Origin: Brevinema andersonii
GTDB taxonomy: Bacteria > Spirochaetota > DYKD01
Reading direction: 5' to 3'
DNA: 64,000 bases
NCBI GenBank assembly: GCA_020722765.1
Contig: DYKD01000005.1
Location: 6,327-70,326, forward strand
Under the pieces are notes generated by a model, which was given only the letters and a program-made list of their open reading frames with translations, was not told the DNA's origin and made no database searches. The position numbers and the translations under genes are program-made. This document shows positions 13,946-53,708 of this stretch, piece by piece (the first letter of the stretch is position 1; the number at the start of each line of letters is the position of its first letter).

Positions 13946-14290
13946 ATGTCTACCCCCGCGTTTCTTGCTCCCAAAGCTCCTGTCATGTTGCATGGAGCTG
14001 ATTATAATCTTGAACAGTGGCTTGATTTTCCGGATGTCCTAAAAGAGGATATTAGGTTGATGAAACTTTCCAATATGAATGTCATGCACCTGGGCATTTT
14101 TCCCTGGTTAAAGCTTGAACCAGAAGAAGGAAAATTTGATTTCTCTTGGTTGGACAAGGTGATGGATTCCCTGTTTGAGAACGGGATTTTCACGGTTCTT
14201 GCGACTCCAAGTGGTGCCAGACCTGCCTGGATGGCTGAAAAGTACCCAGAAGTGCTGAGAGTGAACGGGATCAGACAGTGTCGATTATTT
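13946..14290 (+). pseudogene. N-terminal fragment (about 115 aa) of a GH42 beta-galactosidase; truncated remnant
   Basis: Translation 'HGADYNLEQWLDFPDVLKEDIRLMKLSNMNVMHLGIFPWLKLEPEEGKFDFSWLDKVMDSLFENGIFTVLATPSGARPAWMAEKYPEVL' matches the GH42 N-terminus. Reading frame then degenerates into T-homopolymer-rich junk (T9/T10 runs) and stops. Full GH42 enzymes are about 650-700 aa. Confidence 0.75.
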
Positions 14291-14489
14291 TCAATTTTTT
14301 TTTCTAAAAGGTTGACTTTTGCTTGGAGCATACTTATTTTTTTTTTAATAACGATAAAATATCCTGTTCGTTTTGCATCTTGATGTAATTGGAGTGACTG
14401 GTTTTTGCAATGGAGATACGCTTTGGATTTGAAGAATCAAATGTGTGTTGCTTTTAGGATTAATCAATTGTTATGATAGGAGGGTGGGT

Positions 14490-15161
14490 ATGTCAAACAT
14501 TGCATTATTGCATCTGTTGGTTGTCATGTTGCCTTTTTTGATTTTCGCTGATGAGGCGGACATAGTGTATAGCGTTCCGTCTGATGATAAGGTGGTTGCT
14601 CTTACTTTTGATGATGGGCCAAATCCAGAAGTAACACAAGGGTTCCTGGAAGTTTTAGGGAAAGAAGATATAAAAGCCACTTTTTTCTTAATTGGGAATA
14701 GGGCGAGACAGAATAAGTCTCTTGTGAAGGCATTATTTGATGCCGGGCATGAAATAGGGAATCATACTATGGATCATCTGAATCTTGCCCAATTAGATGA
14801 TAAGCGAAAGGTGAAGTTGCAGATTTCGAAGTTGCAGGCTTTGATAAAAAATATAACGGGCAAGAAACCTGATGTTTTTCGTGCTCCGTTCCTATCTTAT
14901 GATGATCATGTTTTTTTAGTTCTTAAGAATGAATCTCTCAGACCCATAAATGCATCTGTTGACACAAAAGATTGGATGGAGACCATGACTTCTGATGAAA
15001 TAGCCAATACGGTCATGGCTAAGATACATCCTGGTGCCATAGTTTTAATGCATGAACAAGCTCGTACTTTGAATGCCTTGCCTAAAATGATTTCCCAATT
15101 AAAGGAACAAGGGTATGAATTTTTGACTGTGACTGAACTTATAGGGCGAAAAAGGGAATAG
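14490..15161 (+). CDS. polysaccharide deacetylase (NodB-homology, CE4-like), secreted
   Basis: 'ALTFDDGPNPEV...ATFFLIGN...GHEIGNHTMDH' NodB motifs. Signal peptide. Start at ATG 14490 with GGAGGG RBS. Confidence 0.8.
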   Translation: MSNIALLHLLVVMLPFLIFADEADIVYSVPSDDKVVALTFDDGPNPEVTQGFLEVLGKEDIKATFFLIGNRARQNKSLVKALFDAGHEIGNHTMDHLNLAQLDDKRKVKLQISKLQALIKNITGKKPDVFRAPFLSYDDHVFLVLKNESLRPINASVDTKDWMETMTSDEIANTVMAKIHPGAIVLMHEQARTLNALPKMISQLKEQGYEFLTVTELIGRKRE

Positions 15162-15298
15162 AAACAATACCTTGACACATGGTGACAACGTACCGGCATA
15201 CCCGAAGTTTTGCGTCCGCCGTCAGGCGGTGGCATGTGTTTTTGCGATGGCTGCGAGCAAAAACCATGACAAGCAAAATTTGGGTGAGCGAAACCCTC

Positions 15299-15694
15299 CT
15301 AAATTAATTTTAGTCCGTATTTTGTATATTTTTCAAAAGTATCGTCTTGTGACATTAAAAAATAGCCCTTTTCAATTGCATACCAAATAATCATTCTATC
15401 AAATGGATCTTTATGGATATCTCTTGGTAATTTATAAAAAGATGATAATGTTTCATAATCAATATTTTCAATTGAAAAACCAGATTTTAAAATTACAGTT
15501 GGAATTTTATCAGGAAAAATTCCATTCAACTTAAGTTTGCCAATAGAGTATTTTAAGCTTATTTCAAATAATGAAATTGAACAACATACAATTTCATTAT
15601 CCGTAGCTTGTAAAACTTCTAATTCATTTTGAGATAGCTTTGAATCATCAAAAATTGAATGAAGTATGATTTGAGTGTCAATTAGTACTTTCAT
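15299..15694 (-). CDS. vapC: PIN-domain toxin (VapC-like)
   Basis: 'MKVLIDTQIIL...' with acidic PIN residues. Size 131 aa. 4-nt overlap with the upstream antitoxin gene. Confidence 0.7.
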   Translation of the reverse strand: MKVLIDTQIILHSIFDDSKLSQNELEVLQATDNEIVCCSISLFEISLKYSIGKLKLNGIFPDKIPTVILKSGFSIENIDYETLSSFYKLPRDIHKDPFDRMIIWYAIEKGYFLMSQDDTFEKYTKYGLKLI

Positions 15695-15927
15695 AACCCC
15701 AAAAGTTCATTATCAGTAATTTTAAAACCACTGGTTATTTTATATGACGCTTTGCCTTTTAATAAACCAAGATTCCGTTTTTTATTAAGATATTTTTTGT
15801 ATGGAATTATAACTCCAAGTTTTTCGTGGCTTTTTCCATATTCTATAGCGATGGTTTCACCATTTCTCACATTTTTCACAACATTAGAAAAATTTGCTTT
15901 TAAAAGGGCTATTGTCATTGTTTTCAT
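15691..15927 (-). CDS. phd: Phd/YefM-family antitoxin
   Basis: 'MKTMTIALLKANFSNVVKNVRNGETIAIEYGKSHEKLGVIIPYKKY' matches the Phd/YefM fold signature. Start set at internal Met; the track ORF extends 39 codons upstream through AT-rich sequence. Confidence 0.65.
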   Translation of the reverse strand: MKTMTIALLKANFSNVVKNVRNGETIAIEYGKSHEKLGVIIPYKKYLNKKRNLGLLKGKASYKITSGFKITDNELLGL

Positions 15928-15988
15928 GTCTAAAAGATAATATTTAAAGGACATGTTGTCAAGTAAAATTAAAAATAAAAAAAACAGC

Positions 15989-16034
15989 TTGACTTCTTTT
16001 GTAATGTTTTTGTATATTAGAAATAGACTAAAAT
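15989..16034 (+). promoter_or_regulatory. sigma70-like promoter (TTGACT-N18-TATATT) plus conserved downstream box for AraR-like regulator 1
   Basis: -35 TTGACT 15989-15994, -10 TATATT 16013-16018, followed by AGAAATAGACTAAAAT. The whole element is duplicated upstream of the paralog at 17294-17338. Confidence 0.55.
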
Positions 16035-16047
16035 GTGGAGTCAAGCT

Positions 16048-17178
16048 ATGATAAAACCAGAATTAGATTTTTCTTCAGAAATTCCCTTATATATGCAGTT
16101 GACTGAAATATTGACCACTGAGTTACTAACGAAGGGCTTTAAAGTGAATGATCCATTTTATACTGAAAAGGAATTGTTATCTCGATTTAATACCAGCTCT
16201 ATCACCATTAAAAGGGCAATGAGTATATTGGTAAAAAGGGATTTGATATATAGGCAGAGGAAGAAAGGCTCTTTTGTAAAATCACTGCAAATTGCAGAAA
16301 ATGGCAAACTGATTGGAAAAGATTTGGTAAAAACCATATTGTTCATTTTCCCGAAAACTGTCAAATATGCGGAAGTCAATTTTTTCTATTCATCCCTTTT
16401 GATGCAGATGGAGCTATCTTTAAGTTTGCGGAAATTCCGTTCTGAAATCTATACGAGCGGAGTTTCTGAAATCAAGGATGATGAAATTTTTTCCAGGATC
16501 AAGGAGAAAAAGTTTGCAGGAATTTTTCTCATAGGTGGTAGTTTCAGCAAAAAAATCGTAGATAGGGTCAGATTTTCAGGGTTACCTGCGGTCGTCGTGG
16601 ATAGTTTGGATTTATGGAGCGATTGTTATTCTATAAATATTGAAAACCTTTTAAGTGCCAAGACCATGACTGAATATCTGATACAGAATGGACATAAGGA
16701 CATTCTCTTTTTCGGGGTGAGGAATCATCCAATAAGCGCGGAAAGAGAGACCGGATTTCTTTCGGCATTAAGAGAGGCTGGTTTGGACGCTCATCCTGAC
16801 CGTATTCGCAGATGGAAGGGGTTTGAATTTGAAGGTGGTACGAGCCTCATGCAGACTGTTTTGGATGAGAGAAAAATTTTACCGACCGCTATTTTTGCGG
16901 CAAATGATGCGATGGCTATTGCTGCCATGAAAACAGCTATGATGAATGGACTGACGGTTCCCAATGATATCAGTTTTGTCGGGTTTGATAATGTTCCTAT
17001 GGCTTCTCAAATGCATCCTGGTCTGACAACGATGGATGTCCCTCTCGAAGAGATCGGGAAAAATTCAATCAGGCTGTTATTTGGTCAGATGGACAACGTT
17101 AAAATCCAGGAGCCTAATATCAGGATTAGGTCAAGATTGGTAGAAAGGGAATCAGTAAAAAAAATGGGTAACGTTTGA
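16048..17178 (+). CDS. AraR-type transcriptional regulator (GntR-family winged HTH + LacI/GalR-like sugar-binding domain), paralog 1
   Basis: N-terminal GntR HTH ('ELLSRFNTSSITIKRAMSILVKRDLIYRQRKKGSFV') and C-terminal periplasmic-binding-protein fold ('AIFAANDAMAIAAMK...ISFVGFDN'). Start ATG 16048 by analogy with the paralog (GGAG + 7 nt). Confidence 0.75.
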   Translation: MIKPELDFSSEIPLYMQLTEILTTELLTKGFKVNDPFYTEKELLSRFNTSSITIKRAMSILVKRDLIYRQRKKGSFVKSLQIAENGKLIGKDLVKTILFIFPKTVKYAEVNFFYSSLLMQMELSLSLRKFRSEIYTSGVSEIKDDEIFSRIKEKKFAGIFLIGGSFSKKIVDRVRFSGLPAVVVDSLDLWSDCYSINIENLLSAKTMTEYLIQNGHKDILFFGVRNHPISAERETGFLSALREAGLDAHPDRIRRWKGFEFEGGTSLMQTVLDERKILPTAIFAANDAMAIAAMKTAMMNGLTVPNDISFVGFDNVPMASQMHPGLTTMDVPLEEIGKNSIRLLFGQMDNVKIQEPNIRIRSRLVERESVKKMGNV

Positions 17179-17351: not shown

Positions 17352-18470
17352 GTGACAAATTCTGATTTAGATTTTTCTTCAGAAGTTCCATTATACATGC
17401 AGTTAACAGAGATATTGACTTCTGAAATCATGAATAAAGGCTTTAAAGAGCATGATTCATTTTACACTGAAAAGGAATTGCAATCTAAATTTGATATTAG
17501 CCCTATCACCATCAAAAGGGCAATGAGCATTTTGGTTGATAGAAATCTTATTTACAGACGGAGAAAAAAAGGTTCTTTTATCAAATCATTGCAAGTTTCA
17601 AATCATAAGGGATCTGCAAAAGAGTCAGTAAAGACCATTCTTTTTCTTTTCCCTAAAACTGTCAAACATGCTGAAGTCAACTTTTTCTATTCATCTCTTC
17701 TGATGCAAATGGAATTGGCATTGAGCTTGCGGAAATATCGTTCTGAAATTCATACAAGCGGTATTTCTGAGATCAAAGATTCTGAATTATATTTAAAGAT
17801 CAAGGAGAAGAACATTGAGGGTATTTTCCTTATTGGAGGAAGTTTCAGTACGAAAATCATTGATTCAGTGAGGTTTTCGGGAATCCCTTCAGTCATAGTC
17901 GATTGTTTGGATTCATGGTCTGGTTGTTATTCTGTGAATGTTGAAAATTTCCTAAGTGCTAAGAAAATGACCGAATATCTGATACAGAATGGTCACAAGG
18001 ATATTGTTTTTTTGGGGGTTAAGAATCATCCTATTAGTGCTGAGCGAGAAACTGGTTTTCTCGCAGCATTGGAAGAGGCTGGTCTTGATGCCGATCCTGA
18101 TAAGATTCTCAGATGGAAAGGGTTTGAATTTGAGGGTGGGGCAAGCCTCATGCAATCTGTTTTGGATACGAAGAGGAATTTGCCATCTGCTGTTTTTGCT
18201 GCCAATGATGCCATGGCTATTGCGGCTATGAAAGTTGCTATGACGCATGGGTTGGTCATTCCCCGGGATATTAGTTTTGTCGGGTTTGATAATCTTCCTA
18301 TGGCTGCACAGATGCACCCTAGTTTGACTACCATGGATGTGGTACTGGAGAATATGGGTAAACACGCAGTAGAACTGATGGTGAACCAACTCGCAAATGT
18401 TGTTCCTGCAGAGCGAATGGTCAGAATAGACCCACAATTAGTTGAAAGAGAATCAGTGCTTAAGAAGTGA
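17352..18470 (+). CDS. AraR-type transcriptional regulator, paralog 2
   Basis: Collinear with paralog 1 (by eye about 70% identical). GTG start 7 nt after GGAG. Confidence 0.75.
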   Translation: MTNSDLDFSSEVPLYMQLTEILTSEIMNKGFKEHDSFYTEKELQSKFDISPITIKRAMSILVDRNLIYRRRKKGSFIKSLQVSNHKGSAKESVKTILFLFPKTVKHAEVNFFYSSLLMQMELALSLRKYRSEIHTSGISEIKDSELYLKIKEKNIEGIFLIGGSFSTKIIDSVRFSGIPSVIVDCLDSWSGCYSVNVENFLSAKKMTEYLIQNGHKDIVFLGVKNHPISAERETGFLAALEEAGLDADPDKILRWKGFEFEGGASLMQSVLDTKRNLPSAVFAANDAMAIAAMKVAMTHGLVIPRDISFVGFDNLPMAAQMHPSLTTMDVVLENMGKHAVELMVNQLANVVPAERMVRIDPQLVERESVLKK

Positions 18471-18505
18471 ATAGATTGATATTTTTATGGATTTTGGAGG
18501 TTTTC

Positions 18506-20596
18506 ATGAGAATTTTTAGTTTGATGGTTTTTAATCTCTTGCTTATTGGCACCTTGTTTGCCCAGACAGCTCAAAATATAAGTGTCAATAATTCAGTCCG
18601 TGGTTACAATACAATAAGTTTTTCACCAGCACCATCAGTTTCCCCAATGTGGTACAAGGTCTATTCTTCTCCCAATCCCATTATGAGTGTGGATGCAAGC
18701 GGTGTCAGATGTCTATCAGATCACTTTTTGGATTTATATCGTGATGGACAAGGGATTGGTGGATGGACAACAACATTTATGAGTGTTTCTGAGGTTTCTG
18801 GAGATGTCAATTCAGGAACTCATGCGATTAAGGCGACAAGTAGCGGTAATTATCAATTGTTTGCTTTTAACTGGAACAAATACATGGGGTCTGACAATGC
18901 TTCAGAGGCTACATCGCTTATCATGTATATTAAAAGATTGTCAGGTGCGACATCAGTCAAGGTGAGACTTAATTTCGTAAAAAATAATTATCAGACTTCA
19001 AATGTGACGATTTCGGGATTGACAACCTCATGGAAAAAGTATGAAATTCCGATTACAAGTTTTTCACAGGGTTGGGGGATGGCGAATTTAAAGACAAATT
19101 TAAAAACCTTAAAAGAGTTAGCAGTCATGTTTGATTCGGCGTCAGTCATCTCTTTTGATGATGTATCACTGTCTAAGGCGGTATTGACAAATTCACTTTC
19201 ATTCACCTATGGGGATCCGGCTTATGGTGTTGGCCTTGATTCGAGCGAAGGTCAATATTTCGCTGTCACTCATGTCTCGAATAACTTAGGTGAAAACAAG
19301 ACGATAGTTGCAGGGCAAAATTCCACTGTGAGTTCATACGCAAATACTCCAGTGAAAACTATTTTAGGTTTAAAAGGAGGGCTTGTTGTTGCTGAAAATG
19401 TTCCTCCTTACTGGGCTGAGGCGTCTTATTCATCAGCGGATTATATACGTATGCCTATTGATACTGATAATAATGGAGATTTTGATGTTAATCCAGGTCT
19501 TTCTGTCTCTGTCTCCAATTCTTTTGATGGTGATGGGGCCATGGCGATCTCTTATCATTCAAGTGAATGGGCTACTACAGGTATTGGGGATACCATCAGC
19601 ATAGTAAATGGGAAGGATATCTCCTTATATGATACGTTGGTATTTTGGGTAAAGGGGTTATACCTTGATTCAGAGAATTGGACTTCACCGGCAAGTGACG
19701 CTGTTCCTGCGTATAATGTCATGGAATTAAGTTTGCAGACACGGAAGCCAAGTCTTCTATCTCCATACTATATTTCTCTAAACGGGTTGACATCTGAATG
19801 GCAAAAGATATCGATTCCATTTTCAGCATTCGGTAATCCCTATCTCGGTATGGATTCATTCCAATTCTTGGTATTTAAATTTGCGGCGTATACAAAAGGG
19901 ACATTTCTGATTGATAAGATTATGGTTGAGAAAAACGGAGCCTCTCCCTCTTTTGAAGAGGCCTTTCAGGTGCTATCCGTTTATCCCAATGATGGAGCTA
20001 TGAATGTATCCTCAAAGTCGAAGATTTCAGTCCGTTTTAATCATCCTATAAGGAGTATGGGTTCTGGAATCAAGATACGTGAAGTGGCAATAACGAATAA
20101 TGTTACTAGAATAAGCAACGGTTTCACATTTAATCCGGATGCTACCATGGTGTCTGTTGACTTTGCATCTATGGATTTGCTTTTAAAGTCCGGGGTTGAG
20201 TATGAAGTTGAGGTTATGGCTGATATTATGGATGCCACGGGAAGTCCGTTAGGAACATCTTTTAAGTATCGTTTTACTGTGTCTGATGTGCTTGAGATTG
20301 GGGAAATCTCTTTTTCAGCCAATCCTTTCAATCCGGAATTGACGACGGACAATTATCTTTCTGTATTTGTATCTGATCCTGTCGCTGAAATCAAGGCTGT
20401 CTTATTTTCTCCCTCAGGGTCACCTGTCATTGTTTATGACGAAGAGAATTCCACTAAAGGGACTTCCACAGAGAAGAAGATCAAAATTACTGGAAAAAAT
20501 GCAGGGGGAGACTTTTTATCCCCTGGGCTATACATAGTACAGCTTGATGTGAATAAAGGTAAGAAGAAAGAGTATAAGACTCTGGTCATCAAATAA
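18506..20596 (+). CDS. secreted multidomain glycan-binding protein with T9SS type-A C-terminal sorting domain
   Basis: Signal peptide (MRIFSLMVFNLLLIGTLFAQ). Several CBM-like beta-sandwich segments. C-terminus 'NPFNPE...LSVFVSDPVAEIKAVLFSPSGSPVIVYDEE...GGDFLSPGLYIVQLDVN' matches the Por/T9SS CTD pattern. Start ATG 18506 with GGAGG RBS. Confidence 0.65.
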   Translation: MRIFSLMVFNLLLIGTLFAQTAQNISVNNSVRGYNTISFSPAPSVSPMWYKVYSSPNPIMSVDASGVRCLSDHFLDLYRDGQGIGGWTTTFMSVSEVSGDVNSGTHAIKATSSGNYQLFAFNWNKYMGSDNASEATSLIMYIKRLSGATSVKVRLNFVKNNYQTSNVTISGLTTSWKKYEIPITSFSQGWGMANLKTNLKTLKELAVMFDSASVISFDDVSLSKAVLTNSLSFTYGDPAYGVGLDSSEGQYFAVTHVSNNLGENKTIVAGQNSTVSSYANTPVKTILGLKGGLVVAENVPPYWAEASYSSADYIRMPIDTDNNGDFDVNPGLSVSVSNSFDGDGAMAISYHSSEWATTGIGDTISIVNGKDISLYDTLVFWVKGLYLDSENWTSPASDAVPAYNVMELSLQTRKPSLLSPYYISLNGLTSEWQKISIPFSAFGNPYLGMDSFQFLVFKFAAYTKGTFLIDKIMVEKNGASPSFEEAFQVLSVYPNDGAMNVSSKSKISVRFNHPIRSMGSGIKIREVAITNNVTRISNGFTFNPDATMVSVDFASMDLLLKSGVEYEVEVMADIMDATGSPLGTSFKYRFTVSDVLEIGEISFSANPFNPELTTDNYLSVFVSDPVAEIKAVLFSPSGSPVIVYDEENSTKGTSTEKKIKITGKNAGGDFLSPGLYIVQLDVNKGKKKEYKTLVIK

Positions 20597-20613: not shown

Positions 20614-21531
20614 ATGTTAAAAAAAATTCTGATTATTTCCTTGATCGTTTATGGGACTATGGCTTCAGGCGATGTATTTGTGGATAAAGGTGTTGGAGCT
20701 GCTTCTATCGCCATGGGAGGGCAATCGGTCGCAGTAGGGCAGGATATTTTTGCCCTGTATTGGAATCCTGGTGCTTTAGGTTTTTTAGAGGGGAACAGTA
20801 TTGGCGGTATGTATTCATATCGCTATGGACTCTCAGATATGGTCCACCAATTCATTGCGTCTGCTCTCTCGTATAATTTTATACAGGATAAATCCAAGTT
20901 TATTTTGGCTGCTGGCTATGAATCATTTGGAAGTGGGACTATTTACAACGAGGGTGTTTTGACTGGTACTGTAGTTTTTAACTTGAAAGGGAAATATTCC
21001 GCAGGATTAGCCATGAAATATATGCGATTAAGCGTAGGTGAGGATATTTCAACTTATGGTTTTGCGACCGACTTTGGAATTGATCTGCAATTAGGAGGGA
21101 TAGTATTTGTCGGGTATTCTGCAAAGAATCTCATTTCAACTCATTTGAAATATGATGGAACTGTTGGGACAACCCCCTTTGCCCGTGAGATTGTTTTGCC
21201 AATCAAGCATAAGGTGGGTATTGGGTTAAGTAAACAAAAAATCGGTAAAATAGAACTGGGAACTGATCTCCAATCTTTTAATATTGGGACGGAGCTGTCT
21301 ATACTTTCTTTTTTGAAAGGAAGATATGGTTTTTCAATAGATTTTGGTTCCATTACTGATTTGGATAGTTCTTCTATGCGTCGTATGGAACATGATTTCG
21401 GATTAGGTTTTAACGCCGGAAGGGTTAAGTTTGATTATTCTGTTTCCCTTGAAAGTGATTTGCCTTTGACCCATTTCTTTTCTGTGTCTGCGGTCTTTGG
21501 CAGCCCTAAGATTTTGAATGCATCTAATTAA
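20614..21531 (+). CDS. outer-membrane beta-barrel protein, FadL/PorV/PorQ-like (paralog a)
   Basis: Signal peptide. N-terminal 'GAASIAMGGQSVAVGQDIFALYWNPGALGF' signature of PorV/PorQ/UPF0164-type barrels. Alternating-hydrophobic strands. Lies directly downstream of a CTD cargo gene. Confidence 0.6.
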   Translation: MLKKILIISLIVYGTMASGDVFVDKGVGAASIAMGGQSVAVGQDIFALYWNPGALGFLEGNSIGGMYSYRYGLSDMVHQFIASALSYNFIQDKSKFILAAGYESFGSGTIYNEGVLTGTVVFNLKGKYSAGLAMKYMRLSVGEDISTYGFATDFGIDLQLGGIVFVGYSAKNLISTHLKYDGTVGTTPFAREIVLPIKHKVGIGLSKQKIGKIELGTDLQSFNIGTELSILSFLKGRYGFSIDFGSITDLDSSSMRRMEHDFGLGFNAGRVKFDYSVSLESDLPLTHFFSVSAVFGSPKILNASN

Positions 21532-21549
21532 TTTCATCAGGAGTTGTAT

Positions 21550-42230: not shown

Positions 42231-42356
42231 ATGAGATCTAAATTTCTACTGGTGATATTCTCTTTTCTCATTTTGATGATGCAGGCTTTTGCTCAACTTA
42301 CCTATACCCCGATTTATACAGATGCGGGCGGAGATGAGTTTTGTTCTACGAGGTGA
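42231..42356 (+). pseudogene. orphan 41-codon N-terminal fragment (signal peptide + start of the CE2-like beta-sandwich) of the giant-protein family
   Basis: GGAGG RBS then 'MRSKFLLVIFSFLILMMQAFAQLTYTPIYTDAGGDEFCSTR*'. Matches 'AALTYTDVYTDAGGW' at the N-terminus of the 36828 protein. Stop lies 4 nt before the GH94 GTG start. Confidence 0.6.
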
Positions 42357-44753: not shown

Positions 44754-44804
44754 TCCAGGATGAGCCATGAGCCTCTTTTATGATTACCCGTTGGAGGGAT
44801 GTAT

Positions 44805-47800: not shown

Positions 47801-48746
47801 CGCTCCTTCTTCTCAAGTCAATGGTGGCAATTTCATTTCTGGGGAGGGATGCCTTACTAACAATCCTTTATTTAGCTCTAATAGGAAAGATTTTCACCTT
47901 AAGTATCAGTCTCCCTGCCAATTGAGTGGTTTTACAAATAAGGCAAAATCTACAATAGGGAGATATTCCTTTTCTGTGAGTGCAGATGATAAGGGTAAGG
48001 ATGCTCCTTCAACTTATAGTAACTTCTTTTTGTCGACTTATTCCGGATCCATTCCGGGAGATGGAGTGATCTACTTCAAGTTCCCTGCCGGGTTTAGATT
48101 TGGCTCTCTATCTGTTTCAAGTTCAAGTAGATGGGGCGGGATCAAGGGGGGCTTTATCCCAACCTATCTGGGTAGCGGAATCGTTCGTATTGCGAGGGAT
48201 GGGACAGGAACGGCTTCCATAGCCGGTGAATCTGAAAATATTATCATTACAGGTGTTACAAATCCGTCAGTATCTTCGTCTAATTATAGAATACGAATGT
48301 GGACTGAAGATGCTCAGGGCAATATCATCGATTCTTATGAGGATAGCAATGATTTCATGATAGAGAGTGAAATATTCTCCTTGCTTTCAGTTGTCAAGTC
48401 AGTCTCCAATTTCTCATTGAATGGAGTAGGAATAGTGCGCCCACTTCCAGGGACAACAGTGACTTGTAAGATTACATATTCTAATACGACATCTGCAGCC
48501 ACCCGTGCCCCTGTAATTTTTGATAAGGTTTCTTCAAATGTCTATTTTATCACGAATGGCAGGATGGCTCCTCCAGGATGGGTTATGGACTGGTCAACAA
48601 ACCGGTTTCCGATCCAATCGTATCACAGTCCCCATTATGGGGTTTTCCCCATTAGTAATGTTAAAATCAGATGGGTGCGTTGGAGAAATGCCTCCGTGCC
48701 TGGTTTTGATAAGGATTTCCTTGTTTACAAGGTTGTCGTAAGGTAA
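44805..48746 (+). CDS. secreted right-handed parallel beta-helix repeat protein with C-terminal DUF11-like domain (paralog a)
   Basis: Signal peptide. Repeated 'N.I.GN.CY.N...GI.L' beta-helix coils (pectate-lyase/NosD-like). C-terminal 'LPGTTVTCKITYSNTTSAATRAPVIFDKV' DUF11-type repeat. ATG 44805 (GGAGGG at spacing 6). Confidence 0.55.
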   Translation: MKKEVVARLVFASFLFLASNLLAGGTNFLGIYSDTESRVTGTWDNQGWLVETNGGYEGVKQYCYHAVSSNNWDRFALNLDNWGLTVFDARATIALRLAFNGPSGSDADYWTVRLLDANGIYGNTVTMPLSVAYKLTNIPVFTLTNGTGISLSVLREIRFDIHTTSFSSTNLFYLDNIFLVRKYTNLDSFKIRHDKMAVVSVYEKIEVEALDINKIPVGDYSGTVTLDTSGTASAISWISDPSNKGSFGDAGIFSDKAYYTFSPLDKGTATFYLSDDLAETNVNIDIFQPSPSIADDNTEGVMNFYDSAAMSGGWLIDDFEDGDNYNFEPITTNFRWMGITWDNYGGSGSSVHVTNTNIAYFGSRSMKCRYNLGANGHNGGSGAYLNDHWDKWNISQYSFIRFWAKGDGHPISMVVATSNISDFDLYHKDIGDSQPNWTEYLLLFDEFAQYGWGESKPFDLTQVRALEFRPSNKVANETGWFFVDNVIVGPQFFEISHDGTADLDTWENIVVKVKTLKGVNTNYSGLATLYVESPYSGVISWTNTSYNNGIFTSLGSGKATYHFVPADKGVVTLKVSGNVPDLVDLGAKAVYDMSDNNADPRWLAIGEVLAITNTSPASAEMNVSIDANIDIYFNKSLSSITITTANLFLYKVSTMEREPVTLSLPQSNLIRIDPVNNLSVGEQYRVYVTTNVYSVDSLNLPRLSYWIFTVESFYYVNDDSLSGDIFCTAVGNDANDGLKPSTPKRNIMSIVSNYTIPPGKIIYVDTGIYPESVSLTNDNGTNGAYVTFQGSTNGTIIDPPAGDAISLKRAKYVSVKNFQCTGADNGIKLYRDASHNQIKDNRCYKNSSSGILIGEVNNTRASSNIIYGNSCYSNSYHGIFLGAPNELALHRNVVTRNSCYDNGYSGIFLQYSDNNYISQNILYGNNTNGMNAALLVLQDADYNLIENNLSFSNKLSGYEFNSCDGTVARNCIAVGNGQYGFVANPAQNVTYSLAWKNVNAPSSQVNGGNFISGEGCLTNNPLFSSNRKDFHLKYQSPCQLSGFTNKAKSTIGRYSFSVSADDKGKDAPSTYSNFFLSTYSGSIPGDGVIYFKFPAGFRFGSLSVSSSSRWGGIKGGFIPTYLGSGIVRIARDGTGTASIAGESENIIITGVTNPSVSSSNYRIRMWTEDAQGNIIDSYEDSNDFMIESEIFSLLSVVKSVSNFSLNGVGIVRPLPGTTVTCKITYSNTTSAATRAPVIFDKVSSNVYFITNGRMAPPGWVMDWSTNRFPIQSYHSPHYGVFPISNVKIRWVRWRNASVPGFDKDFLVYKVVVR

Positions 48747-48783
48747 TTGTATGATTGATGTTTTGGCTAATAGGTGAGAAGAG

Positions 48784-50661
48784 ATGAAACAGGCTGGTAT
48801 ATGCTTTATATTGTTTTTTTTGCCAGTTCTCTTGTTTTCATCACAAGATTATTATGTTAATGATGGGACACTGAGTGGGGATGTCTGGTGTTCTGCTGTT
48901 GGCGCTTCAGGGAATGATGGGTTGTCAACAGCCACTCCCAAGAATTCGATTATGGGAATCATAACTAATTATAAGTTATATCCTGGTGATATCGTCTATG
49001 TTGATACGGGAACTTATAATGAAAAAGTTGTCATCGGAACAAATGACAGGGGCAATACGAACAACGTTCTCTCTTTTATAGCCAGCTCTAATGGAGCTGT
49101 GATAGATTCTCCCACTAGTGGTTCTGAAGCGGATTCTTCCATTGCCTTAAAGCCTGGTCATTATTTGAAAATAAAAGGGTTCAGGTTAACAGGCTCTTAT
49201 GCTGGAATCTTTATGTGGAATGACTCGAAACACAATCTGATTCAAGGGAACTATATTTATAAGAATACAACAGACGGAATCAAGGTGGGAAGACCTGGCA
49301 GTGATCGGGCATACAGTAATATCATTTATGCTAATCAGTGCTTTTCAAACGATGGGAATGGGATTTATCTGAGTAGCCCAAATGAATTGTGGAAACATGG
49401 TAATCTTGTATCACGGAATAACTGTTTTGATAATAAGGTAAGTGGAATACTTGTCTATTACTCTGATTACAACTTGATTAGTCAGAATATTTTGGAGGGG
49501 AATAATATTAGTGGATCAGGTGGTGGGGCCTTGAATCTTGATGGGAATGCTGATTACAATGTTATAGAATATAATACCTTGTTTTCAAACAAATTATGGG
49601 GATTTTATGTTGCATCAGGAACAGGAACAATCCTGAGAAATTGTATCAGTGTTGGGCATCAGCGGGGTTACGAGGCAAATAGCGCACTCTCTGTCACCTA
49701 TTCTGTATCCCATAAAGATGCATATAATGGGGCCTCGGTTAATGGTGGTAACTTTTTAAGTGGAACTGGTTGTATGACGAATAATCCGAATTTCGGGAAT
49801 ATGCCAAATGATTTATGGTTAAAGTTTGATTCTCCGTTAATAGATAAAGGAACAACGAATAAGGCTAAGTCTTCAATAGGCCGTTTTGCAGCTTCAGTAA
49901 CACCGGTTATCCTCAATGCTTGCAGTTCAACTACCCATACTAATAGTTTTGTGACAACTTATGCAGGCTCTATTCCGAAAAATGGGAATATTATGTTTAA
50001 GTATCCATCATCGTTCTCTTTTGGGACTTTAGCTGTAACCACGACAAGTCGATGGGGAGGAACACCAGGAACTTTTTCTGTTACGGCATTGGGTGATGGG
50101 CTTATCCGTATTTCAAGGGGTAATGATGGGACCTCAAGCACTCCTGGAGAAGCAGAAAACCTGATCATTTCGGGCATTGTTAATTCATCATCTCCCTCCA
50201 ATAGGTATAGGATTTCATTTTGGACCACTACCTCCAATGGTGATATGATCGACTTCCCGGATGAATCGAATGAGTTTCGGATTACGAATGGCGCTTGTGT
50301 CTCTCCTTCTTTCTCGCTTTCAAAAAACATATTGAATATTTTGCCAGGTGGTTCTCCAGTCCCTGGAGCTGCAATAGAATATAGGATAAAGTGTTCAAAT
50401 ACCAGTGGTTCAACCTTAAGTAATTTAATTGTTGTGGATAAGCTCCCGGCATACGCGGCCTATATCACGAATGGGGTAACCTTCCAATCCGGATGGACCA
50501 ATTCCATAGCAACGAATCCAACCCCTGTCCAGACATACGAGAGTTCAGATTATTTTCAGTTTACGAACTTATTGTCAAATGTCAGATGGGTTCGATGGAA
50601 GAAGAAATATATGAATCTGAATGAATCTGCAGAGTTCATATATAGGGTGGTAATAAAATAA
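48784..50661 (+). CDS. secreted parallel beta-helix repeat protein with DUF11-like C-terminus (paralog b)
   Basis: Collinear with the C-terminal 600 aa of the 44805 protein (beta-helix block + shared about 250-aa C-terminal region). Signal peptide. Confidence 0.55.
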   Translation: MKQAGICFILFFLPVLLFSSQDYYVNDGTLSGDVWCSAVGASGNDGLSTATPKNSIMGIITNYKLYPGDIVYVDTGTYNEKVVIGTNDRGNTNNVLSFIASSNGAVIDSPTSGSEADSSIALKPGHYLKIKGFRLTGSYAGIFMWNDSKHNLIQGNYIYKNTTDGIKVGRPGSDRAYSNIIYANQCFSNDGNGIYLSSPNELWKHGNLVSRNNCFDNKVSGILVYYSDYNLISQNILEGNNISGSGGGALNLDGNADYNVIEYNTLFSNKLWGFYVASGTGTILRNCISVGHQRGYEANSALSVTYSVSHKDAYNGASVNGGNFLSGTGCMTNNPNFGNMPNDLWLKFDSPLIDKGTTNKAKSSIGRFAASVTPVILNACSSTTHTNSFVTTYAGSIPKNGNIMFKYPSSFSFGTLAVTTTSRWGGTPGTFSVTALGDGLIRISRGNDGTSSTPGEAENLIISGIVNSSSPSNRYRISFWTTTSNGDMIDFPDESNEFRITNGACVSPSFSLSKNILNILPGGSPVPGAAIEYRIKCSNTSGSTLSNLIVVDKLPAYAAYITNGVTFQSGWTNSIATNPTPVQTYESSDYFQFTNLLSNVRWVRWKKKYMNLNESAEFIYRVVIK

Positions 50662-50692
50662 TAATGCAATTCATATTCCAAAGGAGTTTTTG

Positions 50693-53140
50693 ATGTTATA
50701 CGGACGATTTGATGATCTTGAAAAAGAGTATGTGATTGATAGACCCGATACGCCTTTGCCATGGCTGAATTATCTGGGGCAGGATGAGTTTTTCGGTCTG
50801 TGTACCAATACGGCAGGTGGGTACACTTTCTGGAAAGATGCAAAACTACGTAGGCTTACAAGGTACAGGTACAATAGTGTTCCCTATGATTCCGTAGGAA
50901 GATATCTTTATGTGAATGACAATGGGACGGTCTGGAATCCCGGATGGAAACCTGTCAAACGGAAACTTGACAAATATGAGTGTAGGCATGGGTTGGGGTA
51001 TACTCGTTTCATCTCATCTGTCGACAATGTTGAAGTGGAAATGCTTGTTTTTGTCCCTCTTGCCAAGAATATGGAAATCTGGAAAATCACTGTGCGCAAC
51101 AAGTCCAACAAGTTTAAGCATATAGACCTTTTTTCCTATCAGGAATTTAATTTTTATGATGCTTTAAATGATATGACTAACTTTCAACGTACTTTTTCCA
51201 TTGGTGAAGTAGAAGTTGAAGGAAATGCCATATATCATAAGACGGAATATAGGGAGAGACGCAATCATTATACCATGTTTGCATCCACAAAAGATTTGGT
51301 CGGGTTTGACACTTCTCGTGACGTATTTGTCGGTGTTCATAATGGTTTGCATGAAGCAAATGTCCCGTTCTCCGGTAAATCGACCGATTCTATGGCTTTT
51401 GGATGGAATCCAGTGGGAAGCCATCATTTGAAAGTTTCGCTTGAACCTGGGCAGGAAGAGTCTTTTGCTCTTATGTTGGCATATATAGAAAATGAGGAAT
51501 CTGAGAAGTTCGATGCGTCTGGAGCGTTAAACAAACGCAAGGGGCGTGAGCTGTTAAAAGAATACTCTGATATCAACGTTGTTGATGCGGAGTTTCAAAA
51601 ATTGTGTCAGTATTGGGATGACCTGTTGTCCAAATTTAAGGTGAATAGCCCCAATGAGCATGTGAATAGGATGCTCAATATCTGGAATCAGTATCAATGT
51701 ATGGTCACTTTCAATCTTTCGCGTTCCGCCTCCTTGTATGAATCCGGAATTGGGCGTGGCATGGGGTATAGGGATTCAAACCAGGATGTGCTCGGTTTTG
51801 TTCATCTGATCCCAGAGAGGGCAAGAGAAAGAATCCTTGATATCGCGGCTACACAGCTTTCTGATGGTACTTGCTATCATCAGTATCAGCCACTCACGAA
51901 AAAGGGAAACAAGGATATTGGTGGTGATTTTTATGATGATCATCTTTGGCTGATCCTTTCCACAAGCTCCTATATCAAGGAGACTGGAGATCTTTCCATC
52001 CTGGATGAAAGGATAGGATATGCTGATAAGACCTATTCCAATCAGATGGGAAAAGAGAGCTTGCTACATCATCTGGAGACATCTGTTGCATATACTTTGG
52101 CAAAACGTGGACCACATGGATTACCTCTTATCGGGCATGCGGATTGGAATGATTGTCTGAATCTGAATTGTTTTTCTCGTGAGCCAAATGAGAGTTTTCA
52201 GACTGCTGGTGATGTCCGTGACTCCAAGGCCGAATCCGTCATGATTGCTGGCCTTTTCCTATACGCCACTCGTGAAATGGAAGCTCTCTATTCTTTCATG
52301 GGCAAAGGGGATGATGCACAAAGGATGCAATCCAATTATAAGACAATGTTAGAATCCGTTGAGTCTCAGGCGTGGGATGGCGAATGGTATTTGCGTGCCT
52401 TTGACGCGTCTGGTCATCCCATAGGAAGCAAGCAGAATGTTGAAGGGAAGATTTTCATTGAAAGTCAAGGATGGTGTGTATTGGGAGGTGCTGGGTTTTC
52501 AAATGGTCGTGCTACGAAAGCGTTAGAAAGCGTTCATAAGCACCTTTTTACTAAAAATGGAATTATGTTACAGCAACCCCCTTATTCAAAGTATTATCCT
52601 GAATTAGGAGAGATCAGTTCTTATCCACCAGGAGTCAAGGAGAATGCCGGTATTTTTGCCCATAATAATACTTGGATAAATTTGGCTCTTTGCCAGCTTG
52701 GTTTGGGGGATCGTGCTTTGGAATATTATCTTTCAATTTGTCCTTCTGCTAAACAGGATCAGATAGAAACCTATAGGTCAGAACCCTATGTCTATGCGCA
52801 GATGATTGCTGGTAAGGATGCTCCCTGTTTTGGAGAGGCAAAAAACTCTTGGCTAACTGGAACAGCTGCTTGGACATTTTTAACAGCCAGTCAGGGATTG
52901 ATGGGGGTTAAACCTCAATTTGATGGATTAATGATAGACCCTTGTATTCCTAAAGATTGGGACAATCTTGAGATTATTCGTGAGTTCAGAGGTCACGTCT
53001 ATATCATCACTATCAAAAATCCTGATAAGGTGTCAAAGGGAGTGGTTAAGGTTGTCATGGACGGTGTAACTCTCAGTAGCAACATTTTACCTGTTAAGGG
53101 TGCTACGCAGACTCATCAAGTTGAAGTCCTGTTAGGTTGA
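50693..53140 (+). CDS. GH94-family phosphorylase (paralog b), cytoplasmic
   Basis: 'MLYGRFDDLEKEYVIDRPDTPLPWLNYLG'. Collinear with paralog a. ATG 50693 with AAGGAG RBS at spacing 6 (track start TTG 50690). Confidence 0.75.
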   Translation: MLYGRFDDLEKEYVIDRPDTPLPWLNYLGQDEFFGLCTNTAGGYTFWKDAKLRRLTRYRYNSVPYDSVGRYLYVNDNGTVWNPGWKPVKRKLDKYECRHGLGYTRFISSVDNVEVEMLVFVPLAKNMEIWKITVRNKSNKFKHIDLFSYQEFNFYDALNDMTNFQRTFSIGEVEVEGNAIYHKTEYRERRNHYTMFASTKDLVGFDTSRDVFVGVHNGLHEANVPFSGKSTDSMAFGWNPVGSHHLKVSLEPGQEESFALMLAYIENEESEKFDASGALNKRKGRELLKEYSDINVVDAEFQKLCQYWDDLLSKFKVNSPNEHVNRMLNIWNQYQCMVTFNLSRSASLYESGIGRGMGYRDSNQDVLGFVHLIPERARERILDIAATQLSDGTCYHQYQPLTKKGNKDIGGDFYDDHLWLILSTSSYIKETGDLSILDERIGYADKTYSNQMGKESLLHHLETSVAYTLAKRGPHGLPLIGHADWNDCLNLNCFSREPNESFQTAGDVRDSKAESVMIAGLFLYATREMEALYSFMGKGDDAQRMQSNYKTMLESVESQAWDGEWYLRAFDASGHPIGSKQNVEGKIFIESQGWCVLGGAGFSNGRATKALESVHKHLFTKNGIMLQQPPYSKYYPELGEISSYPPGVKENAGIFAHNNTWINLALCQLGLGDRALEYYLSICPSAKQDQIETYRSEPYVYAQMIAGKDAPCFGEAKNSWLTGTAAWTFLTASQGLMGVKPQFDGLMIDPCIPKDWDNLEIIREFRGHVYIITIKNPDKVSKGVVKVVMDGVTLSSNILPVKGATQTHQVEVLLG

Positions 53141-53559
53141 TTTTTTAATATATTAATGCCCCTTCATTATTTATCTTCATCGGCAATCCTAAAAACCTGT
53201 TTTCTGGAATTTCCTGTGAAGTTGGGTGAAGGAAATACGCATACAGCTTTCTGAAAAAAAACAAGACGCAGGGTTAAATATTTCGGTTTTCATGCGCACA
53301 AGACGGAAATGTTAGTGATTGAAGCGCGTTATAATGTGCATATTCCAATGATTGATGAGTAGCATGTGTAACTGAACGGGATCATTAACAGGTTGTATGA
53401 TGCTTGCACAGGGGGGACAAGGAACAGAGGGATTCCGGTTGCATGACCGCCATCAGGGAAGTGAATATAAAATCAATGCTTTTTCCTTATTAAAAAAATT
53501 TGGGAATTACTGGATTGTTTTGTAATTTGTAGTTATGATCTGGGAATAAGGATACCCTA

Positions 53560-53708
53560 TTGCGAAACATTGAACGGGTCTTTAACAGTCCTTCTTTCAA
53601 CAAAATGCTTTCTACTGAAACAATCCGGAGCAGAAGATATAAGTCTCCACTCAGTCTGATCATGTTTGATATAGATCATTTCAAGTTGGATAATGAAAGT
53701 CATATCTG
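53560..53708 (+). pseudogene. internal fragment of a GGDEF-domain diguanylate cyclase gene (remnant)
   Basis: Translation 'RSRRYKSPLSLIMFDIDHFKLDNESHI*' matches the conserved R..RY..PLSL.M.DIDHFK.IND..GH block of GGDEF domains. Truncated before the GGDEF catalytic loop. No start codon or RBS. Lies in a 560-bp non-coding stretch. Confidence 0.6.

Follow-up and report, generated by a model that had tools for sequence, protein, structure and literature searches.

A probable SusCD-independent polysaccharide-utilisation locus with a candidate outer-membrane gene cassette in an uncultured bacterium from a sulfidic cave

The 64 000-nucleotide stretch of DNA analysed here (the window), which comes from a rare uncultured bacterium of a 44 °C sulfidic cave biofilm, contains a 40-kb block (Table 1) that is probably a resident, SusCD-independent polysaccharide-utilisation locus (PUL) rather than a recently acquired island. 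The SusC/SusD pair of classical loci appears to be replaced by a previously undescribed outer-membrane gene cassette. The core of the original prediction, a glycan-related block that is edged by gene remnants, built of paired components and free of SusCD, is confirmed. All genes between positions 16033 and 53140 lie on the plus strand with intergenic gaps of -4 to ∼50 nt, the two exceptions being 173 nt between the two regulator genes and a 202-nt stretch between OMP2 and GH94A that contains a remnant, so that the predicted glycan-degradation locus is indeed a coherent, tightly packed unit. Among the block ORFs of at least 100 amino acids, there are no matches to the SusC, SusD, TonB-receptor or ABC families, and no inner-membrane sugar transporter is encoded in the locus. 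The claim that the block includes no transporter therefore holds for SusC/SusD and ABC proteins but missed hyp969, which is probably an outer-membrane channel. Three further assemblies made from the same sample contain the internal remnant and both junctions, at 99.93-100% nucleotide identity.

Table 1. Features of the glycan block, with positions in the window
Feature	Position	Strand	Assignment
GH42 beta-galactosidase 5' remnant	ORF 13946-14383	+	Homology to ∼14280; remainder is an out-of-family tail
CE4 polysaccharide deacetylase	14445-15161	+	Signal peptide; Pfam Polysacc_deac_1, E 3e-36
PIN toxin and Phd/YefM-like antitoxin	15299-16044 (15299-15694; 15691-16044)	-	AT-rich insert
AraR-type regulators, two in tandem	16033-17178; 17352-18470	+	Pfam GntR HTH and LacI-type sugar-binding domain
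Cassette gene 1, 709-aa secreted protein	18467-20596	+	Big_5 Ig domain, C-terminal sorting-type domain
Cassette gene 2, OMP1	20614-21531	+	Small PorV-like beta-barrel; NCBIfam PorV_fam 58 bits, cutoff 90
Cassette gene 3, hyp969 (969 aa)	21544-24453	+	Candidate glycan channel
GH39A, GH39-like (clan GH-A) hydrolase	24475-27186	+	C-terminal CBM9; Pfam
Small secreted CBM30-like protein	27183-27866	+	Pfam CBM30 E 1.2e-5, below cutoff
OMP3	27895-29232	+	PorV-like barrel (aa 4-297) and CHB_HEX_C domain; Pfam CHB_HEX_C_1
Giant 1 (1817 aa)	29229-34682	+	GH8, SGNH esterase, about nine 103-aa Ig units, C-terminal sorting domain
Second GH39-like hydrolase	34622-36784 (gene callers' start 34715)	+	Pfam GH39 E 4e-10
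Giant 2 (1457 aa)	36816-41189	+	Two CE3-like SGNH esterase domains, Ig units, C-terminal sorting domain; Pfam
OMP2	41225-42157	+	Bona fide PorV/PorQ family; NF033709 138.8 bits, cutoff 90
Third-giant 5' remnant	42219-42356 (gene callers: 42231-42356)	+	Signal peptide and ∼20 aa
GH94A phosphorylase	42360-44753	+	Cytoplasmic; PDB 8bou, 749 bits
Beta-helix proteins, two (1315 aa, 625 aa)	44799-50661	+	Secreted, right-handed; Pfam, NCBIfam
GH94B cellobiose phosphorylase	50690-53140	+	Cytoplasmic; PDB 3qde, 1068 bits, full length
GGDEF diguanylate-cyclase 5' remnant (49 aa)	53560-53709	+	Overlaps start of PCC-domain gene

The cassette consists of the genes for a surface protein with a C-terminal sorting domain (CTD), a PorV-like outer-membrane protein (OMP) and a CBM11-barrel protein, usually followed by a CAZyme gene. 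This gene order is kept, at 19-45% identity, across seven loci of rare uncultured bacteria, the window and L091, L092, L094, L095, L097 and L098 (L-numbered contigs are from other assemblies). In four of the seven (the window, L092, L095 and L097), the CAZyme encoded after the barrel gene contains CBM9. The neighbours differ in their CAZymes, often GH94 (GH9, GH94, GH3, GH4 and CE4 in L092, L094, L095, L097 and L098), and the type of regulator also varies by locus, AraR in the window and LacI in L091 and L094. In L091, the order is the Big_5 protein (42% identity), OMP1 (42%), hyp969 (43%), OMP2 (50%), a GH44 giant and GH94A (45%). The case for a PUL-like system without SusCD is strengthened by these core genes in the same order (42-50% protein identity), and also because the distant loci repeat the cassette. 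For the 709-aa protein (Big_5, E 8.5e-10; TIGR04183, 17 bits, below the cutoff), which has homologs in the same position in L091, L092 (28%) and L094 (22%), a surface glycan-binding or scaffold role is proposed.

In each of the seven loci, the gene immediately preceding the barrel gene encodes an OMP1-family member. The expectation that OMPs come in threes is borne out: blastp among the three proteins of the window detects no link, but the OMP1-family profile reaches both OMP3 (E 1.7e-16; hhalign probability 97%) and OMP2 (E 2.2e-13). The three appear to be remotely related, PorV-like proteins, with OMP1 and OMP3 reaching PorV weakly or via the profile. Each OMP gene adjoins a gene for a CTD-bearing protein; the OMP3 gene and the beginning of giant 1 share 4 nt, and a terminator-like hairpin with a 15-bp stem (42177-42211) lies 3' of OMP2.

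The third cassette protein, previously a mere ‘hypothetical', is reinterpreted here as a CBM11-barrel fusion. A signal peptide is followed by six K/E-rich 27-aa repeats and a CBM11-like beta-sandwich, and the protein closes with an outer-membrane beta-barrel of ∼22 strands whose last residue is Phe. Among the seven full-length homologs read to the C-terminus, all keep this Phe; four of the 10 family members match CBM_11. The AlphaFold2 model, from a 10-sequence alignment, is of moderate confidence (pLDDT 68.6), and its best structural matches are substrate channels, namely OccD/OpdQ, maltoporin, chitoporin and TBDT barrels. Judging from the fold alone, hyp969 is a probable outer-membrane channel. 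The family is very rare (19 matches in 1.84 billion representatives) and, besides the window protein, all six full-length members examined are encoded next to a small OMP and CAZymes.

The two giants are 46-49% identical (blastp). The GH8 domain of giant 1 (Pfam E 1e-48; 274 bits against CelA, PDB 1cem) indicates a CelA-like endoglucanase, and the Ig units form 309-nt repeat families (D2-D4), with one unit pair at 95% nucleotide identity. The SGNH domains (GDSL-type esterase fold) are closest in PDB to the CE3 acetyl esterases 5b5s, 5b5l and 2vpt, and accordingly, the earlier assignment to CE2 gives way to CE3-like. Both giants carry predicted FlgD_ig/type-A-like CTDs with scores at or just under the curated cutoffs (FlgD_ig 26.7 bits in giant 1, with a second score of 25.6; cutoff 27) and the visible motifs PNP...WDGKNDxG...SGVYL...R, and the C-terminus of giant 2 matches the PorU C-terminal region (E 8e-15). 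The suggestion of T9SS-type cargo is thus upheld, in that the block encodes PorV/PorQ-family OMPs along with proteins with type-A-like CTDs. No such CTD was detected on the GH39-like hydrolases or the beta-helix proteins, and the core T9SS genes PorK/L/M/N, SprA/Sov and PorU are absent from the window.

GH39A matches GH39 (E 4e-13), Cellulase and CBM9_1 (E 3e-18) in Pfam and GH39 xylosidases in PDB (∼1e-10), and is 38% identical to the second GH39-like protein. The CE4 gene has PdaB/NodB-like NCBIfam matches under the equivalog cutoffs, and a CBM30 protein is also encoded in L098. GH94A is closest to N,N'-diacetylchitobiose phosphorylases whereas the reference match of GH94B is the Clostridium thermocellum cellobiose phosphorylase; at 33% identity and in different specificity groups, the two are predicted to be functionally distinct. 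The beta-helix proteins (45% identity) have in common a DUF11-like C-terminal domain, also present on the L091 GH44 giant, and the longer one bears CIA30-like and Big_5 domains.

The cassette could instead be a secretion or surface-assembly device, in which the barrel serves as a translocon or platform of the usher or autotransporter kind and presents the CBM, together with the giant Ig-repeat proteins, as an adhesive, cellulosome-like layer, with uptake left to unrelated porins. The passenger-like region of repeats and CBM ahead of a C-terminal barrel has an autotransporter-like order, the cassette always adjoins very large Ig-repeat proteins, and the DUF11-like domain constitutes a second, non-T9SS-like C-terminal domain. 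This possibility nevertheless seems unlikely given that the barrel most resembles substrate channels, that the T9SS-type CTD motifs on the giants point to general T9SS export, and that linkage to cytoplasmic enzymes in four of the seven loci (GH94 in the window, L091 and L092; GH4 in L098) implies an import route.

Remnants were predicted at both edges and, as a third, at 42231, and all three were recovered. The GH42 remnant covers only positions 1-91 of the 376 in the Pfam profile (E 4.8e-34), its frame decays near 14280 into AT-rich, promoter-like sequence, and the junction is identical (100%) in Logan contig L084. The GGDEF remnant, with a ...LSLIMFDIDHFK motif, covers profile positions 9-48 of 161 (E 1.8e-4; 21.7 bits, slightly missing the cutoff of 23.8). 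The internal remnant, a signal peptide followed by ‘LTYTPIYTDAGGD', matches the N-terminal end of giant 2 (1457 aa), ‘LTYTDVYTDAGGW', and corresponds in position to the 2545-aa giant of L091; evidently, a further giant paralog has been lost here and this is its N-terminus.

These edges, together with the composition, could be taken to indicate a horizontally acquired island, still compositionally foreign, that was inserted between the lar and PCC/fumarase genes and broke a resident GH42 and a resident GGDEF gene. The predicted compositional difference is borne out by GC3 (0.375 in the block vs 0.437 in the flanks; Mann-Whitney p = 1e-5), synonymous codon use (chi2 = 331, df 41; Leu and NNC/NNT use differ) and tetranucleotide correlation (r = 0.87 between flanks and block, 0.94 between the flanks), although the offset is modest. 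In addition, the lar operon ends after LarB where relatives continue with LarC, the glycan locus of a relative does not adjoin its LarB, and a toxin-antitoxin pair (PIN, Pfam E 8.7e-10; Phd, E 3.9e-4, below cutoff) lies near the left junction. This pair (GC 0.25-0.27, GC3 0.14-0.23) is, however, the only clearly foreign component of the block. The postulated insertion scars are truncated 5' parts of two separate genes rather than the halves of one target, and GH42 belongs functionally to the block; no integrase, transposase, flanking att-like direct repeat or edge tRNA was found at or in it; and the flank genes LarE and LarB have a block-like GC3 of 0.36-0.37. In the nearest relatives (LarB 69-70% identical), the arrangement of the housekeeping flanks is not conserved at all, so that the non-adjacency to LarB is uninformative. 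The relative, in which L090 (lar genes) and L091 (glycan locus) are combined as one genome based only on the shared sample and similar divergence, has nearly the same GC3 offset (0.49 in the block vs 0.54 in its host, -0.05, compared with -0.06 here), even though its locus tracks the higher GC of that host (0.47 vs 0.41 here). A gene-class effect therefore fits better than recent import, and any transfer would predate the split. Insertion as a recent island is thus improbable; the compositional offset is real, and the ancestor shared by both lineages may have received the block by an ancient transfer.

The five predicted paralog pairs (regulators, GH39-like hydrolases, giants, GH94 and beta-helix proteins) are all supported by blastp, the tandem regulators being the most similar (72% amino acid identity; 76-78% nucleotide identity, repeat families D5 and D6). 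The pair identities span 33-72%, and therefore, of the proposed segmental duplication and recombination, remodelling through duplication stands but a single segmental duplication does not. The sequence itself demonstrates that the block was remodelled in situ: regulators, giants, GH39-like and beta-helix genes and Ig units were duplicated, both in tandem and at dispersed sites, and deletions produced the three 5' stubs. A loose pile of CAZyme and surface-protein genes, with pairs arising from independent recruitment of common families, would agree with this spread of identities, with the different GH94 specificities and with the locus-dependent regulators, but is very unlikely considering the conserved cassette order in seven loci, the tight one-strand packing with some 4-nt overlaps, and the consistent neighbourhood of the rare hyp969 family.

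For the resident PUL, we infer the following mechanism. The giants and the Ig protein would cross the outer membrane by a type IX-like pathway via their FlgD_ig/type-A-like CTDs, the GH39-like hydrolases and beta-helix proteins would also be secreted, and the adjacent, dedicated PorV/PorQ-like barrels would keep the exported proteins at the cell surface, resembling the way PorQ holds PorZ, PorV holds PorU and PorP-like proteins hold type-B cargo. Surface enzymes would deacetylate and cut a beta-glucan or an acetylated hemicellulose, and the CBM11-barrel protein would catch the oligosaccharides and move them through the outer membrane with no TonB plug involved. A transporter encoded elsewhere would import them across the inner membrane, the cellobiose phosphorylase and the chitobiose-phosphorylase-like enzyme would cleave disaccharides in the cytoplasm, and the AraR-type regulators would control the whole array. 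Both non-covalent anchoring and T9SS cellulolytic clusters that lack SusCD have precedents (PMC9143113, PMC5831590, PMC12016534). The substrate is read as a plant glycan, beta-glucan or hemicellulose; the specificity may instead be mixed or related to chitin, because CE4, CHB_HEX_C and the chitobiose-phosphorylase-like GH94A are present. Overall, the locus is likely to be an old PUL-like system that was reshaped through duplication and deletion.

The third gene of the cassette within the ~40-kb glycan locus (hereafter, the block) encodes a 969-aa protein (hyp969, the CBM11-barrel protein) that yields no match in Pfam or NCBIfam. It starts with a signal peptide, followed by six 27-aa K/E-rich repeats, a beta-sandwich, for which CBM_11 or CIA30 is matched in several family members, and ~500 C-terminal residues of long antiparallel strands, the predicted ~22-strand outer-membrane barrel, with a terminal Phe in the seven full-length homologues that were read. 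The repeats are encoded by six tandem 81-nt units, the central ones 87-91% identical, and it is at this array that the MAG GCA_973314595.1 is broken into an 83-kb and a 169-kb contig. The AF2 model of hyp969 was usable only when built from the 10-member family alignment, the 2-sequence alignment giving a pLDDT of 28.9. The N-terminal plug and TonB box that define TonB-dependent transporters were not found ahead of the barrel.

Features of the window discussed in the text, with their coordinates
Feature	Coordinates	Remarks
Left flank	1-13886	MFS transporter, SpoIIE-PAS phosphatase, HD-GYP (minus strand), ArgRS, XseA, RibD, RibE, Dus, LarE, LarB
HD-GYP phosphodiesterase	4404-5405	Minus strand
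XseA/ArgRS overlap	6954-7090	Longest XseA ORF shares 137 nt with the ArgRS end; XseA begins at ~7080 (445 aa) according to gene callers; a mere start-codon ambiguity
LarE, LarB	12299-13886	Nickel-pincer cofactor pathway
Block	13946-53708
PIN toxin, Phd/YefM-like antitoxin	15299-16044	Minus strand
Big5_709	18467-20596	Secreted Ig protein, 709 aa; cassette gene 1
OMP1	20614-21531	PorV-like; cassette gene 2
hyp969	21544-24453	Cassette gene 3
81-nt repeat array	21618-22265	Within hyp969
OMP3	27895-29232	PorV-like
Giant 1	29229-34682	1817 aa; SGNH, Ig, CTD, GH8
Ig-unit copies	32524-32823, 33454-33753	Within giant 1; 300 nt each
Giant 2	36816-41189	1457 aa; SGNH, Ig, CTD
OMP2	41225-42157	PorV-like
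Terminator-like hairpin	42177-42211	After OMP2
Internal stub	42219-42356	Remnant of a giant
DUF11-like C-terminal domains	48350-48746, 50270-50661	In the two beta-helix proteins
GGDEF stub	53560-53709	Decayed
Right flank	from 53693	PCC-domain protein, both fumarase subunits, ComEC-C-terminal-like, MscS-like, cNMP-binding protein, SurE, TPR proteins, tRNA-His, BatA/B/D-like operon
Flank protein	55499-56512	Lineage-specific; against metagenome contigs, two weak, irrelevant matches
cNMP-binding protein	57377-57901
tRNA-His, BatD/BatA/BatB/TPR operon	59445-63347	Bacteroides-aerotolerance type

A word-indexed search for homologues of hyp969 returned the protein itself and one other, and the exhaustive HMMER search over 1.84 billion representatives returned 19. 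The genomic context was read for six members of the family besides hyp969. The same gene order is found in seven loci (19-45% identity): a surface protein with a putative C-terminal sorting domain (CTD), a ~300-aa PorV-like outer-membrane protein (OMP), the CBM11-barrel and an enzyme. This last enzyme bears CBM9 in four of the seven, and the surrounding enzyme sets vary. A fixed cassette with varying enzymes follows the logic of polysaccharide utilization loci (PULs), with a different outer-membrane core. We tentatively regard the cassette as a possible hallmark of an unrecognized class of glycan loci, whose bacteria are rare, uncultured and probably of the FCB group. If this reading is correct, the cassette would be a functional counterpart of SusC/SusD, with recognition built into the channel (a ‘CBM-porin') and the enzymes held by dedicated PorV-like anchors.

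Gene order around the CBM11-barrel gene in six related loci (percentages, identity to the proteins of the window)
Locus	Gene order
L091 (closer relative, 43%)	giant - LacI regulator - Big5 (42%) - OMP1 (42%) - barrel - OMP2 (50%) - GH44 giant - GH94A (45%)
L092	Big5-family protein - OMP - barrel - CBM9 protein - URO-D - GH94 - GH3 - CE4 giant
L094	LacI regulator - Big5-family protein - OMP - barrel - clan-GH-A-like protein
L095	CTD-protein end - OMP - barrel - CBM9 protein - CTD protein
L097	OMP - barrel - CBM9+GH9 enzyme
L098	GH4 - CBM30 protein - 460-aa CTD protein - OMP - barrel

The presence of three OMPs in the block, noticed in the original prediction, escapes blastp, which shows no link among OMP1, OMP2 and OMP3, but is confirmed by the OMP1-family profile, which matches OMP3 (E 1.7e-16) and OMP2 (E 2.2e-13) over the full length (hhalign 97%). 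By the PorV/PorQ model NF033709 (cutoff 90 bits), OMP2 is a family member (138.8 bits, positions 2-326 of 326) and OMP1, at 58.1 bits, falls under the cutoff and does not qualify by itself; OMP3, which carries an extra CHB_HEX_C domain, has no direct match to this model and is tied to the family only through the OMP1-family profile. A homologue search with OMP2 found the protein itself and one relative only, the cutoff used (1e-20) being too stringent to retain generic PorV proteins. Each of the three genes adjoins a gene for a putative CTD protein; in the case of OMP3 and giant 1, the two genes share 4 nt.

The C-termini of both giants and Big5_709 follow the pattern PNP...WDGKNDxG...GVY...basic end. 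Big5_709 scores 17.2 bits with TIGR04183 (cutoff 23), the putative CTDs of the giants score 26.7 and 25.6 bits with FlgD_ig (cutoff 27) and match CHU_C with E 0.03, and the C-terminus of giant 2 matches region 959-1082 of the 1095-position PorU model (E 8e-15). No core gene of type IX secretion (T9SS; PorK/L/M/N, SprA/Sov, PorU) lies within the 64-kb window. The beta-helix proteins have no match to a T9SS CTD; both share with the GH44 giant of L091 (~20700-21085 on that contig) a second, DUF11-like C-terminal domain (motif VRWVRWRN...), which likewise matches no T9SS CTD and may be a novel sorting or anchoring signal.

Almost all genes of the window are on the plus strand and, within the block, genes for regulators, GH8, GH39-like, GH94, SGNH, CE4, CBM9 and CBM30-like proteins and the OMPs follow each other on this strand with short gaps, a co-localization of the kind that defines PULs; the hairpin after OMP2 suggests at least two transcription units. 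Many components indeed come in twos, with widely varying divergence (33-72% identity): the regulators are 72% identical in amino acid sequence (76-78% in nucleotide sequence) and, by blastp, the giants are 46-49%, the beta-helix proteins 45%, the GH39-like proteins 38% and the GH94 proteins 33% identical. For the last pair, the prediction is valid in that two phosphorylases are present, but these are not recent duplicates, given their low identity and different closest characterized enzymes. GH94B matches 3qde with 1067.6 bits over residues 2-816, contains both Pfam domains (supersandwich and catalytic) and, by this match, is a cellobiose phosphorylase; GH94A has the same fold and is closest to the N,N'-diacetylchitobiose phosphorylase 8bou (749 bits). 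To judge from these similarities, GH94A and GH94B are probably two enzymes with differing roles. The CE2 label given to the giants is not supported: the SGNH (GDSL-type esterase fold) domains have CE3 esterases (5b5s/5b5l and 2vpt) as their sole PDB sequence matches. The GH8 domain of giant 1 is CelA-like. No informative PDB sequence match emerged for Big5_709 or for the 625-aa beta-helix protein. Within giant 1, two Ig-unit copies 930 nt (three units) apart are 95% identical and, at this level of identity, can be taken as the product of a recent intragenic three-unit duplication, far younger than every gene pair.

The same sequence, at 99.93-100% nucleotide identity, is present in JGI assembly 3300000227 (TB_AS07_7), in the Logan contigs of SRR1559028 and in the MAG GCA_973314595.1, and these matching assemblies contain both block junctions and the internal remnant. 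The run SRR1559028 comes from the Acquasanta Terme AS07-7 sulfidic cave biofilm, at 44 C (PMC4288042). Among ~15 billion proteins, the housekeeping proteins of this organism form singleton clusters at 90% identity, so that the lineage is very sparsely sampled; a scan of genome contigs with LarB gave, among the matches listed, identities of at most 54%, from many phyla, with no close relative. The Bat-type operon in the right flank is consistent with an FCB-group or a spirochaete-like host, without proving either.

Is the block an acquired or expanding island, as originally proposed? Its composition does differ from that of the flanks: GC3 is 0.375 versus 0.437 (p = 1e-5), leucine codons are shifted toward TTA/TTG and NNC codons toward NNT, and, in tetranucleotide profile, the two flanks correlate with each other at 0.94 and with the block at 0.87. 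Recent acquisition, however, is not well supported. Domain scans detected no mobility domains (integrase, transposase) in the block, there are no direct or inverted repeats at its edges, and no tRNA gene is found there, the lone tRNA of the window, tRNA-His, being located 5.7 kb beyond the block. Among the flank genes, LarE and LarB resemble the block in their GC3. In the closer relative, the homologous locus has a GC of 0.47 and a GC3 of 0.49, and a lar contig from the same sample has a GC3 of 0.54; the offset of ~0.06 observed here is thus mirrored by one of equal size in the relative, whose locus followed the GC of its own host, assuming that the two contigs (L090 and L091) belong to one genome. 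Under that assumption, the mirrored offset points to a gene-class effect or to very old residence. The block lacks the mobility genes, the flanking repeats or tRNA target and the clearly atypical composition by which genomic islands are recognized, and the case for its recent import is weak.

Gene order in the flanks cannot decide this issue, because the flanks are not syntenic in the relatives. The LarB contigs of two relatives (L088 and L090) read RsgA-LarE-LarB-x-LarC-?-MFS and lack both Dus and glycan genes, and the nearest LarB relatives (69-70% identity) have neither Dus upstream nor PCC/fumarase downstream, so that adjacency of lar and PCC/fumarase genes elsewhere is uninformative. An insertion of the 16.7 kb from hyp969 to OMP2, relative to L091, was considered and rejected: the more distant L092, L095 and L097 also have a CBM9 enzyme directly after the barrel, and from these gene orders, its loss in L091 is more likely. 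Judging by composition, nothing in the window is clearly foreign except the 0.75-kb PIN/Phd pair, which lies after the GH42 break and before the regulators and has a GC of 0.25-0.27 and a GC3 of 0.14-0.23, compared with ~0.41 around it.

The gene remnants noticed at both edges of the block and inside it are real. The GH42 stub at the left edge retains only profile positions 1-91 of 376 (E 4.8e-34), its frame entering AT-rich, promoter-like DNA at ~14280, and the GGDEF stub at the right edge corresponds to profile positions 9-48 of 161 (E 1.8e-4) and extends into the beginning of the PCC gene. These are 5' portions of two unrelated genes; no additional GGDEF or GH42 remnants were found in other frames at the block edges. 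The internal stub, with its signal peptide and LTYTPIYTDAGGD, repeats the N-terminal sequence of giant 2 (1457 aa). At the equivalent position, after OMP2 and before GH94A, L091 carries its giant, so that the window has lost a giant gene at this site. The nickel-pincer cofactor pathway is represented by LarE and LarB alone, whereas relatives continue with LarB-x-LarC-456 aa; the lar operon appears to be cut at the GH42-stub junction, which is therefore a site of local rearrangement or deletion. Cyclic-nucleotide signaling genes surround the block: HD-GYP, the decayed GGDEF gene and the cNMP-binding protein.

From sequence and predicted fold, a mechanism can be proposed for the locus as a whole. 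By analogy, a T9SS-type pathway would export the giants and Big5_709, and dedicated PorV-like barrels would keep them on the surface non-covalently. The GH8, SGNH, GH39-like and CBM9 enzymes would act there on beta-glucan or acetylated hemicellulose, the CBM11-barrel protein would take up the oligosaccharides and move them through the outer membrane by passive import, and the cytoplasmic GH94 phosphorylases would split the disaccharides, with AraR-type regulators presumably governing the whole array. The locus encodes no inner-membrane transporter.

Like canonical Bacteroidota PULs, the locus combines a regulator, surface glycan binders, surface enzymes, a ~22-strand import barrel and intracellular enzymes in one co-oriented array, with enzyme sets that vary around a conserved outer-membrane core. 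Unlike these PULs, it lacks SusC (with plug, TonB box and carboxypeptidase-regulatory domain), SusD and lipoprotein surface glycan-binding proteins (SGBPs), its proposed anchoring is of the CTD/PorV-like type and import would be passive. The predicted absence of SusC, SusD and ABC components is upheld by Pfam and NCBIfam scans: no ORF of at least 100 aa in the block matches Plug, TonB_dep_Rec, CarboxypepD_reg, SusD or an ABC family.

Related arrangements are known. The rumen bacterium ‘Ca. Paraporphyromonas polyenzymogenes', whose genome is a genuine Bacteroidota one and whose T9SS is documented, has a SusCD-free cluster in which multi-modular glucanases with T9SS CTDs are linked to a GH94 cellobiose phosphorylase of the cytoplasm and to a beta-barrel predicted for the outer membrane, and the proposed logic, from surface endoglucanases to cellodextrins, import and phosphorolysis, is common to both (PMC5831590). 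That cluster differs in its GH5 enzymes, GH3 and GPH inner-membrane symporter, and its description, in the part consulted, mentions neither a CBM-fused barrel nor PorV-like OMPs in the cluster (PMC5831590). The ‘atypical PUL' chu_1276-chu_1280 of Cytophaga hutchinsonii is a co-oriented, co-induced cellulose-utilization cluster without SusC/SusD, in which outer-membrane beta-barrels are likewise accompanied by an endoglucanase and by a surface protein that binds cellulose and has CBM-like modules; genetic work has shown it to be essential, whereas the present locus is known from sequence alone (PMC12016534). There, the CBM-like modules reside on a separate SGBP-B-like protein and are not fused to a barrel as in hyp969, CHU_1276 resembles TonB-dependent transporters, and PorV-like paralogs and GH94 are missing (PMC12016534). 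The exhaustive search of 1.84 billion representatives showed no sequence relationship between hyp969 and this cluster. The T9SS cargo-anchor pairs PorQ-PorZ, PorV-PorU and PorP/SprF-like proteins with type-B CTD cargo also consist of small accessory-family barrels encoded beside CTD surface proteins, which the known ones bind (PMC9143113, PMC10947112, PMC5562754). However, the known adjacent cognate anchors are of the PorP family, with type-B CTDs, whereas here the putative anchors are PorV/PorQ-like and the CTDs type-A/FlgD_ig-like. The general kind, a SusCD-free, T9SS-linked or barrel-based cellulolytic cluster, has thus been described before (PMC5831590, PMC12016534). What appears to be new is the specific conserved cassette, with its CBM-fused large barrel, a family without a database model, and PorV-like paralogs beside the cargo genes.

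The usual route to glycan-utilization loci is the search for SusC/SusD pairs, so that lineages without the pair are largely invisible to PUL prediction. The locus described here and its six relatives provide an alternative marker, namely, a CBM11-barrel gene preceded by one for a small PorV-like OMP, with variable CAZymes (GH8, GH9, GH44, GH39-like, GH3, CE3/CE4-like, GH94) around the pair. The locus also displays the evolution of such a system: the core genes are retained, and the enzyme genes and Ig repeats undergo duplication, exchange and loss. Should the barrel prove to be a channel that binds carbohydrates, it would represent a new means of oligosaccharide capture at the outer membrane, and members of this family would be candidates for structural and transport work.
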